Source: Escherichia coli
Lineage (GTDB): Bacteria; Pseudomonadota; Gammaproteobacteria; Enterobacterales; Enterobacteriaceae
Reading direction: 5' to 3' (one strand)
NCBI RefSeq assembly: GCF_030013595.1
Contig: NZ_CP122768.1
Length of the DNA: 64,000 bases
This document shows, in pieces, positions 8,432 to 10,496 of the stretch. Made by a program: the position numbers and the translations under genes. Numbering within the stretch: position 1 is the first letter of the stretch; each line of letters starts with the position of its first letter. The notes below the pieces were generated by a model that made no database searches, was not told where the DNA came from, and was given only the letters and a program-made list of their open reading frames with translations.

Positions 8432-8890
8432 TTATAGAGACAAGTCCTGCAGTCGCTCCGATAAGTCTCCAGTAGCCAACTGCTCTGCGTCGATATCTTC
8501 CTTGACCTGTTGATGCCAGGTTGTTTCATCCCACAGCTCAAACTTGTTGAACTGTCCAACCAGCATCACTTCTTTTGTCAGCCCGGCATGTTGCCGCAGT
8601 ACTGGCGCGATTAACAATCGACCTGCGCCATCCATCTGACATTCGCTGGCATGACCTAACAGTAGGCGCTGCACACGGCGCTCAACCGGGTTCATGCTCG
8701 ACAGACGCGATAATTTTTGCTCGATAATTTCCCATTCAGGCAGGGGGTAAAGCAGCAGGCACGGGTGATGAATGTCAATGGTGCAAACCATTTGACCGGC
8801 AGCGTTCTCAAGCAGCTGTTCCCGATAACGGGTAGGCACTGATAAGCGCCCTTTGCTGTCGAGATTGACTAACGTTGCTCCCCGGAACAT
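8432..8890 (-). CDS. mraZ: transcriptional regulator MraZ
   Basis: Track ORF trimmed to [19 protein letters not shown] start (152 aa); first gene of dcw cluster. Confidence 0.93.
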
Positions 8891-8909
8891 GCCAGCCTCA
8901 CCCCTTATT

Positions 8910-8934
8910 CCCACTTTGCCCCACAATTTCCCAC
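8910..8934 (-). promoter_or_regulatory. MraZ operator: three direct TGGGN repeats at 10-bp spacing in the mraZ promoter (Pmra) region
   Basis: Plus-strand CCCAC at 8910, 8920 and 8930 (GTGGG on the coding strand), 20-45 bp upstream of the mraZ ATG; matches described MraZ binding repeats. Confidence 0.75.
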
Positions 8935-9491
8935 TGAAAGGAGTTTACGGAGCGGAGGAAAAGCTTGTCAAGCCAGTCACAAGGCATACCGAGGTAAAAA
9001 ACCCGATGTTTACGGCTAATATCAGCGTTGTTTATTTTACGTCCAACGTGCGAAGCAAATTAACGTTATGAATAGCTGTAAGAAAAAATCCCTCATCGTC
9101 ATCACCGTTTTAAAATGACTCACTATTTTCCACAGCAAATATAAAGTGTCAGTTTGCGACGCGAGCGGCATTTTAGGACATATCTTCCCCGGTTAACAGT
9201 CCCTGTTGCGTCTGTGTGGCGCTTGATGCCAGCGGGTTTGCGCAAAAGCAAAGAAAAGTGTTTGTTAAATCGGCAATTCATCTCTGCATGTAACAAAATA
9301 ATGCAAAAACGCGCTATCGATATCACTTAATTATTGTGAATTTCAGCTGGTGAGGTAATTAACGGGCAGGTTTAAAAGCATTTATCAATAATAGCCAGGA
9401 ATAGTCTTATTTACTTTAAGGATATTGATGTCCATTCCCGTACTCAACGCGCCAGAGAGAAATTCACCTGGCGCGTATTTTTGTTCGCGGC

Positions 9492-10496
9492 TTAGCTACG
9501 GCTGAGCACGCCGCGGCGATAGAGATTACGTTTAATGCGCGTTAAACCAGGTTTTGGCTTACGCGGTTCGTCCAGGCTTGCCAGGACAATCTCCAGCACA
9601 CGCTCTGCGACATCGCGGTGACGTTGAGCCACTGCCAGCACCGGGCACTGTAAGAAGTCGAGCAGTTCGTTATCGCCAAAGGTGGCAATTGCCAGGTCAG
9701 AAGGCAGTTTGCCGTCACGACGTAGCGTGACATCCATCACCCCTTGCAACAACGCAAACGACGTTGTGAACAGTGCCTGCGGCATCGGATGCGTTTCCAG
9801 CCATTTTTCGAATAACTGGGCAGCCGCCTCCCGCTCATAGCTGTTGGCATAAAGGAAATGCACTTCGCGCGGATCATCTTTCCAGGCAGTACGGAAACCT
9901 TGTTCACGCAGGAAGCTGACAGAAAGCTCCGGCAGCGCGCCAAGATAAAGTACCGTCTCGGCGGGAAACTTACGTAACTCTTCCGCCAGCATTTCGGCAT
10001 CATCCTGATCGGCACCAACCACGCTGGTGAAATGTTCACGATCGAGGGCGCGGTCCAGCGCGACAATCGGGAACGGGTCGTTAGCCCAGCGTTGATAAAA
10101 AGGATGCTCAGGTGGCAACGACGTCGAAACAATAATGGCATCAACCTGACGCTGCAAAAGATGCTCGATACAACGCATTTCGTTGTCGGGCTGATCTTCC
10201 GAGCAGGCAATCAGCAGTTGATAACCCCTTTGCCGCGCCTGGCGTTCAAGATAGTTAGCGATGCGGGTATAGCTGGTGTTCTCCAGATCGGGGATCACAA
10301 GACCAATAGAACGTGTGCGTCCAGCACGAAGCCCAGCTGCCACGGCGTTCGGGTGGTAATTGTGCTCACGCACCACAGCCATGACTTTTTCAACGGTTTT
10401 GTCGCTCACACGGTATTGCTTCGCTTTGCCGTTAATAACATAGCTTGCAGTGGTCCGCGACACTCCCGCCAGCCGAGCGATTTCATCCAGTTTCAC
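9492..10496 (-). CDS. cra: catabolite repressor/activator Cra (FruR), LacI family
   Basis: 334-aa ORF ([34 protein letters not shown]...), HTH plus periplasmic-binding-like domain; synteny ilvH-cra-mraZ. Confidence 0.97.

Follow-up and report, generated by a model that had tools for sequence, protein, structure and literature searches.

Genes and features at the locus

The window, by which we mean the whole stretch of 64,000 nucleotides of Escherichia coli DNA that was analysed, carries on its minus strand cra (9492..10496), followed by mraZ and then by rsmH, ftsL and ftsI. A Pfam search places Cra among the LacI-family proteins and recognizes MraZ as PF02381 (E = 4e-47, in two stretches), while a reading of the MraZ translation locates two DXXXR motifs, DSKGR at residues 11-15 and DGAGR at residues 87-91. 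Between the cra stop codon, which ends at 9492, and the mraZ ATG at 8890 lies a spacer of 601 bp (8891-9491). The K-12 spacer is also 601 bp long and is 97.8% identical to that of the window, and the spacer of E. coli strain FDAARGOS_497 is 100% identical to it. Among 5,426 complete E. coli genomes, 5,423 contain the spacer, and no annotation lies under it in E. coli genomes, the curated K-12 record included. Positions are given here in window coordinates, and K-12 coordinates are obtained as 98524 minus the window position. The features of the locus are collected in Table 1.

For comparison, 80 Enterobacteriaceae loci were collected via their MraZ protein; the 80 aligned spacers are those of the window, of K-12 and of 78 collected loci. 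The relatives compared are thus Enterobacteriaceae alone, and the MraZ homologues among the matches listed are all at least 85% identical. Across all collected loci, the synteny of cra and mraZ is retained, with a spacer of 560-740 bp.

Shortly past the cra stop codon, the spacer contains a GC-rich hairpin that is likely the cra terminator. The hairpin found at this place differs from genus to genus. The terminator scan did not call the hairpin of the window, owing to its short T-run, and Term-seq has no 3' end there.

Table 1. Features of the cra-mraZ spacer and of mraZ, in window coordinates
Feature	Position	Strand	Remarks
GC-rich hairpin CGCGCCAG...CTGGCGCG	9448..9475	-	directly past cra stop; fold -21.5 kcal/mol, z = -2.5
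Block 0 TAAGACTATTCCTGG, then TATTAT (-10-like, 9393-9388) and TSS 9381	9381..9409	-	
Block A, TTGyATTATTTTGTTACAT	9287..9307	-	57% of columns >=97% conserved; ends at weak TSS 9287
Candidate P2, -35-like CTGTTA	9194..9199	-	3/6 to consensus; 18-bp spacer, not conserved
Candidate P2, -10 TAAAAT	9170..9175	-	5/6 to consensus; invariant; TSS 6 nt downstream
Block B, invariant stretch GCCGCTCGCGTCGCAAACTGACACTTTATATTTGC	9135..9169	-	around and downstream of TSS 9164
Block C, TTTTTTCTTACAnnTATTCATAACGTTAATTTGCyTCG	9050..9088	-	54% of columns >=97% conserved
Predicted PdhR site (Goehler 2011)	8960..8983	-	overlaps Pmra -35; EMSA probe sequence
Pmra -35 TTGACA	8966..8971	-	promoter scan; invariant in all species
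Pmra 18-bp spacer AGCTTTTCCTCCGCTCCG	8948..8965	-	nearly invariant across family
Pmra -10 TAAACT	8942..8947	-	promoter scan; taken as -10 in Sun et al. 2021
Pmra TSS, A8935 or G8934	8934..8935	-	three datasets; 45-nt 5'UTR
MraZ box 1 GTGGG	8930..8934	-	+2..+6 of Pmra
MraZ box 2 GTGGG	8920..8924	-	+12..+16 of Pmra
MraZ box 3 GTGGG in E. coli, GTGGN in family	8910..8914	-	+22..+26 of Pmra
mraZ Shine-Dalgarno region GGGGTGAGG	8896..8904	-	sequence reading; 8904-8888 mean identity 0.95
mraZ CDS	8432..8890	-	152 aa + stop; 99.3% identical to K-12 MraZ

The proximal promoter Pmra and its short 5'UTR

The promoter scan identifies Pmra as TTGACA-18-TAAACT, with 10/12 consensus matches, directly upstream of three GTGGG boxes that precede mraZ. 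In the Pmra core (8975-8942), conservation reaches at least 97% in 85% of the alignment columns. The near-invariance extends to the 18-bp stretch between the two hexamers, which is unusual for a promoter spacer.

The start of transcription from Pmra can be taken from three sources. In Sun et al. 2021, the primers used for mutagenesis place the start region at C(-1)A(+1)G(+2) within ccttt-CAG-tggg. Kim et al. 2012 report a TSS at K-12 89589, which gives a UTR of 45 nt, and one at the equivalent position in K. pneumoniae, where the UTR is also 45 nt; Pmra is the only start that they list here. In Cappable-seq data, K-12 position 89590 has an RRS of 27.2, the top score in the spacer, and since the sgrS start in the same file equals its annotation exactly, the coordinates carry no offset. 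As the three sources agree, the TSS lies at window 8935/8934 and the boxes occupy +2..+26. The spacer had been described in the original prediction as a 601-bp leader of the dcw cluster; this needs correction, because the main transcript starts within the last 45 nt and its leader is 45 nt rather than 601 nt long. Older literature gives a 38-nt UTR, 7 nt off the three newer maps, a discrepancy that leaves the overall picture unchanged.

Beneficial mutations from the LTEE fall within the same short interval. A C->T change at -82 (8972) adjoins the Pmra -35, another C->T change at -53 (8943) lies within the -10, and recurrent IS150 insertions at -12 (8902) hit the mraZ Shine-Dalgarno region. This clustering at -35, -10 and -12 indicates that expression is set at the Pmra core.

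In the literature examined, PdhR is the only regulator proposed for this region, and its binding is weak: Goehler 2011 reported a 1.7-fold ChIP signal and a 'very weak' EMSA shift. Our consensus scan for PdhR over the spacer gave no good match. GalR was considered as a second candidate and set aside, as its predicted site (K-12 89735) falls within mraZ, outside the spacer.

Conserved blocks and further start sites upstream of Pmra

The original prediction implied that the remaining ~550 bp of the spacer, up to cra, were featureless. Our alignment does not bear this out, as it reveals invariant blocks at fixed spacing, with which three further TSSs are associated. The conservation forms four islands, which we call block 0 (9409-9395), block A (9307-9287), block B (9199-9192 and 9177-9135) and block C (9088-9050). 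Columns that are at least 97% conserved across the family make up 54-58% of blocks A, B and C, against a benchmark of 1.8% for the four-fold degenerate sites of cra. Between the blocks there are no such columns (0%), and the mean identity of these segments is 0.28-0.49.

The distances between the blocks are kept as well. Within block B, the -35 anchor and the -10 anchor are separated by 22 bp in 75/75 species. From block B to block C there are 84-87 bp, and from block C to the Pmra -35 101-104 bp, in all species. The distance from block A to block B is either ~144 or ~154 bp, and these two classes occur in two or more separate clades. In 5,423 E. coli genomes, blocks B and C each occur as a single copy. 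The ~30 bp that are conserved past the start site in block B, and the whole of block C, exceed what a promoter needs.

Some natural variants lack parts of this arrangement. In a bee-gut lineage, blocks B and C have been lost, with Pmra and the boxes retained, and in the natural human faecal isolate 4/4 an IS5 lies within the CTAA of the -10 element of block B. Taken together, these two cases indicate that the upstream module is dispensable.

All upstream TSSs come from a single Cappable-seq source (MG1655, M9 glucose, mid-log; K-12 plus strand). The strongest of them is a 5'-triphosphate end at K-12 89360, that is, window 9164, with an RRS of 9.4 and an enrichment of 4.9 in this one dataset. 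Its start signal is about one third of that of Pmra (RRS 9.4 vs 27.2). A start at ~9163 had been predicted from conservation before the TSS data were read, and the chance of a TSS in a given 5-nt window is p ~0.01-0.03. The two elements upstream of this start have mean identities of 0.91 and 0.92, whereas the stretch between them (9191-9178) has 0.46. We therefore consider it rather likely, though far from settled, that block B contains a conserved secondary promoter, P2, with the architecture CTGTTA-18-TAAAAT and its TSS at 9164. The TSS base of this candidate is a T, and the consensus promoter scan did not call it. The scan did propose a different promoter-like sequence in the same block, CTGACA-16-GAAAAT (9152-9125), which was rejected as it has no Cappable-seq TSS. 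An MPRA tiling study mentions 'two distinct promoters' at mraZ in a figure legend, which gives no coordinates.

Two further starts are weaker. One, at K-12 89237 (window 9287), lies at the end of block A, with an RRS of 2.1 at a threshold of 1.5; the other, at K-12 89143 (window 9381), follows the TATTAT behind block 0, with an RRS of 6.2. This TATTAT is present only in Escherichia and Citrobacter. Both starts probably mark weaker promoters. Transcripts that begin at any of the upstream starts would reach mraZ only by traversing both Pmra and the MraZ operator, so that their contribution to mraZ would depend on read-through. The ~550 bp are an upstream control region, and not the leader of the main transcript.

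Block C differs from the other three in having no TSS in Cappable-seq (K-12 plus strand, one dataset), and its sequence would most likely represent a protein-binding site. This raises the broader alternative that the upstream blocks mainly serve to bind nucleoid or other DNA-binding proteins, through which Pmra would be controlled from a distance, with the nearby TSSs being minor or incidental. Upstream activation or looping would fit the contiguous invariant stretches, which are longer than promoter hexamers, as well as the rigid spacing from B to C and from C to the Pmra -35. The two A-to-B classes differ by ~10 bp and arose in at least two clades, block A resembles a 10-bp direct repeat (TTGTAT / TTGTTA), and neither RNAalifold nor the hairpin test described below gave a signal at the RNA level, all of which would suit proteins bound to DNA. 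However, three of the four blocks coincide with mapped TSSs, and the single-copy status of blocks B and C in E. coli implies that they do not recur in the manner of a regulon. In addition, the search for a responsible factor gave no convincing match among the consensus sites compared, of which only PdhR was scanned by a tool. The others were compared with the spacer informally, which gives leads at most: Cra, GalR, IHF, Fis, LexA and DnaA gave no convincing match, nor did CpxR, OmpR, RstA and ArcA, nor the promoter consensus of sigma-54, sigma-28 or sigma-32. On balance, we regard a predominantly protein-bound upstream region as possible but doubtful. It is compatible with the presence of secondary promoters, and both readings could apply to the same blocks.

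Searches for RNA elements and small genes in the spacer

Since the upstream TSSs would yield leaders of 274 to 491 nt, and there is a precedent in Rhodobacteraceae, the ~550 bp might instead form a structured cis-regulatory RNA leader or an sRNA, similar to the Rhodobacter dcw leader and its UpsM. Conservation here takes the form of invariant blocks, rather than of paired variable stems as such an RNA would have. An Rfam scan of 8700-9700 on both strands returned 0 matches at E <= 10. With RNAalifold, none of the 30 predicted pairs in 32 non-redundant leaders was compensatory, and the covariation term was -0.54. The folding energies of the leaders were no better than those of shuffles (z = -0.1 and -0.2). 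A hand-picked hairpin at 9047-9023 was 58.7% paired, compared with 53.8% in shuffles, which places it marginally above its controls. Moreover, no terminator was called in an intrinsic terminator scan of the spacer, and Term-seq lists no 3' end between K-12 83641 and 89783. These results make an RNA element very unlikely. A more specific proposal, that the CCUCC of the Pmra spacer hides the mraZ Shine-Dalgarno sequence in long RNAs, was also discarded, as the pairing of the Shine-Dalgarno sequence is the same in long and short transcripts.

A small protein or leader peptide encoded upstream of mraZ is more improbable still. Two reading frames come into question, a 67-aa ORF with a GTG start (9123..9326) and a 44-aa ORF from an ATG at 9171. 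The first lacks its start codon in most species and is interrupted by scattered stops. In the second, almost every species keeps the ATG and the first ~12 codons (MP-x-x-SQTDTLYF), and a 20-codon version occurs in many; but the codons that are kept never differ by a synonymous change, those at positions 3 and 4 encode different amino acids among species, and the length of the ORF ranges from 7 to 75 aa. In addition, its ATG shares bases with the TAAAAT -10 and precedes TSS 9164, and the frame has no conserved Shine-Dalgarno sequence. A Pfam search of the ORFs of the spacer gave no match. The earlier statement that there is no convincing ORF upstream of mraZ is therefore well founded, as the ORFs are unconserved over 80 species and Pfam finds nothing in them. 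The same prediction had raised a structured RNA or a small protein within 8935..9491 as something that a conservation scan could reveal; neither was found.

The three GTGGG boxes and the MraZ operator

The array of boxes reads caGTGGGaaattGTGGGgcaaaGTGGGaataaGGGGtgaggctggcATG on the minus strand, and the three GTGGG copies stand in the minus-strand context ...TTGACAagcttttcctccgctccgTAAACTcctttcaGTGGGaaattGTGGGgcaaaGTGGGaataaGGGGtgaggctggcATG. On the plus strand, CCCAC starts at 8910, 8920 and 8930, exactly as claimed for three direct repeats with a 10-bp period. The array is unique in the window: GTGGG-N5-GTGGG-N5-GTGGG, with one mismatch allowed, has 1 match across both strands of the 64 kb where 0.01 would be expected, and TGGG-N6-TGGG-N6-TGGG has 1 match where 0.00 would be expected, the expectations being derived from dinucleotide-preserving shuffles.

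Across the family, boxes 1 and 2 are GTGGG in 79/80 aligned Enterobacteriaceae spacers. The GTGG core of box 3 is invariant in 80/80, and its fifth base is T in 53, C in 14, A in 11 and G in 2 sequences, the last being the two E. coli sequences. No indel interrupts the array, all three GTGG cores are found in every one of the 80 sequences, and the three boxes are still present in the divergent bee-gut lineage. The repeats had been described as TGGGN, which holds for all three boxes in E. coli, although in the family box 3 is conserved only as GTGG. Because this fifth base varies, the conserved unit, as read from the alignment, is GTGG at 10-bp phase.

The placement of the boxes can be compared with what has been described for MraZ. 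Three direct repeats are reportedly the MraZ operator of E. coli K-12, in work said to be that of Eraso et al. in 2014 (J Bacteriol 196:2053). Across phyla, MraZ sites consist of three boxes with GTG(G/T), spaced by six nucleotides, and in a cryo-EM model each box receives one MraZ subunit in its major groove (PMC12957436). A secondary source puts the E. coli site past the -10, where it overlaps the TSS (PMC7761207), and binding and repression by MraZ in E. coli K-12 are reported via secondary citations. The array described here has the same properties. It consists of at least three direct GTG(G/T) repeats at a 10-bp period, it lies in the dcw promoter, past the -10, at the TSS and upstream of mraZ, and the gene beside it encodes an MraZ with two PF02381 repeats and DXXXR motifs. 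Similarly, the number and phase of the boxes are kept at orthologous loci, as expected of an MraZ operator. The match to the MraZ autoregulatory site, which had been proposed from the repeats, thus agrees with the published box layout, with the position at +2..+26 of Pmra and with the PF02381 gene that follows. We conclude that the three GTGGG repeats are, with high probability, the E. coli MraZ operator. The sequence of the array, its position relative to the TSS, its uniqueness and its conservation are established here, and binding and repression are taken from the literature.

The geometry of the array suggests how the operator would act. The three boxes, which span +2 to +26 of Pmra, lie one helical turn apart and would face a single side of the DNA. 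An MraZ oligomer, produced from the gene that begins 45 nt past the TSS, would insert one DNA-binding 'cradle' into the major groove at each box. MraZ bound in this way could occlude RNA polymerase or block promoter escape, and mraZ and the downstream dcw genes would be repressed.

That the G-rich repeats are mainly a G-quadruplex element, and not a protein operator, is scarcely credible: the E. coli coding strand does contain the canonical motif GGG-N7-GGGG-N6-GGG-N5-GGGG, and one paper claims, in its title and abstract, that the mraZ promoter of S. aureus contains a G-quadruplex, but four G3 tracts are found only in the two E. coli sequences of 80, the last base of box 3 being T, C or A in all other genera, and since the G3 tracts are unconserved and GTGG is kept, selection acts on GTGG at 10-bp phase and not on G-tracts.

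Discussion

The operator at Pmra is already known as the textbook autoregulatory site of the dcw cluster, and identifying it adds nothing new. The added value of our analysis, which we consider modest, is the conserved module upstream of it. Most of the spacer is neutral, while ~130 bp in four blocks are conserved as strongly as the promoter itself, and we see in these blocks a modest lead. How nutrition and growth rate act on dcw transcription in E. coli is poorly understood; the only link proposed in the literature examined is PdhR, with its weak binding. The upstream blocks offer sequences that can be mutated.

It is tempting to speculate that blocks 0, A, B and C (9409-9050) together form a control platform of the dcw operon, composed of tandem promoters and of at least one factor site, for which block C and the ~30 bp after 9164 would be the candidates. 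The discriminator of candidate P2, gccgc, is GC-rich and resembles, by analogy only, those of stringently controlled promoters, and an rRNA-like discriminator of this kind might provide a coupling to the growth state. We put this forward as a tentative idea that could well prove wrong. If it is true, such a platform could couple the transcription of cell-division and cell-wall genes to the growth state through the promoter at 9164.

The closest known system is the Pmra/MraZ operator of E. coli K-12, which is the same locus. The promoter and the box array are identical, and the two sequences are separated by strain-level SNPs only, such as that in the Pmra spacer, which reads ttcctcCgc in the window and ttcctcAgc in K-12. 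In other phyla, MraZ boxes are known as the B. subtilis MBRs (GTGGWG x3), as a four-box site in M. genitalium with a cryo-EM structure, and as four repeats in B. cenocepacia. These share with the array described here the GTG(G/T) core, the 10-bp period, the direct orientation and the position at the dcw TSS. They differ in the number of boxes, which is three here and four in M. genitalium and B. cenocepacia, and in the flanks, since the boxes here are GTGGG with AAAGTGG at box 3, while AAAGTGT is found elsewhere. In addition, the 5'UTR of B. cenocepacia is 100 nt long, compared with 45 nt here.

A second point of comparison is Rhodobacter sphaeroides, in which an extended dcw 5' leader with an sRNA, UpsM, has been described (Weber 2016). 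Both loci have a long non-coding region before mraZ, with starts far upstream. In contrast to R. sphaeroides, the E. coli region yielded no terminator, mapped 3' end, conserved RNA structure or sRNA in our searches, and its main promoter is the proximal one.

Finally, the rrn operons are transcribed from tandem promoters, P1 and P2, with GC-rich discriminators. The dcw locus differs from them in that the candidate P2 has a spacer of 18 bp, not 16, and is weaker than the proximal promoter. As in rrn P1/P2, several starts in the same direction precede one operon, and the candidate P2 of the dcw cluster would combine a near-consensus -10 and a weak -35 with a GC-rich discriminator.

The main mraZ promoter

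The 18-bp spacer of Pmra, the main mraZ/dcw promoter, is nearly invariant over about 80 species, and ordinary promoter spacers differ in that respect. Within it CTCCG occurs twice as a direct repeat (CTCCG-CTCCG), and its sequence can pair with that of the G-rich boxes, the three MraZ operator repeats lying just downstream. An RNA-level role for this element, in which its CCUCC motifs would sequester the mraZ Shine-Dalgarno sequence (SD), was tested and is unsupported.

Coordinates of sequence features in the cra-mraZ spacer
Feature	Window	Strand	Details
Pmra spacer	8948-8965	minus	18 bp, AGCTTTTCCTCCGCTCCG
Canonical G-quadruplex motif	8901-8932	minus (coding)	GGG-N7-GGGG-N6-GGG-N5-GGGG; E. 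coli boxes and SD
DnaA-box-like sequence	9120-9134	minus	TGTGGAAAA; fits relaxed consensus TTWTNCACA (other strand)
Hairpin 3' of the cra stop	9448-9475		-21.5 kcal/mol, z = -2.5; T-run poor

Upstream region and transcript ends

In the human faecal isolate E. coli strain 4/4 (locus L086; NZ_CP023826.1 98170-99363), the candidate -10 of the upstream promoter, CCTAAAAT, is interrupted within its CTAA by an IS5 element (window equivalent ~9173-9177) that has the same orientation as mraZ. The DnaA-box-like sequence also carries a GTGG/GTGA recurrence at 10-bp distance; since neither the match nor the recurrence is conserved outside Escherichia, both probably arose by chance. Further upstream, the hairpin that follows cra differs in sequence from genus to genus while its position is constant, and thus the structure has been retained and its sequence replaced. 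On the other side of cra, the Apirhabdus / 'Erwinia sp. HR93' lineage has a gene call of 51 aa in the ilvH-cra interval (L082-L084, positions 638-797).

Within mraZ, Cappable-seq places two weak transcription start sites at K-12 89783 and 89806 (window 8707-8741 region), the first of which shares its coordinate with a 3' end in Term-seq; a start site at K-12 89701 has been assigned to rsmH (Kim 2012).

Operator boxes and the Shine-Dalgarno sequence

In the Buttiauxella / Cedecea / Dryocola group (L054, L067, L073, L078 and relatives), an insertion of ~10 bp, equivalent to window ~8905, lengthens the stretch that separates box 3 from the SD, so that the distance from box 2 to the ATG is 47 bp in this group and 37 bp otherwise, a difference of one helical turn. 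No fourth GTGG box is created by the insertion. The G-quadruplex motif, which spans the boxes and the SD, is found in only two of the 80 aligned spacers, both from E. coli, because the final base of box 3 is T, C or A elsewhere. For the S. aureus mraZ promoter, one paper reportedly claims a G-quadruplex.
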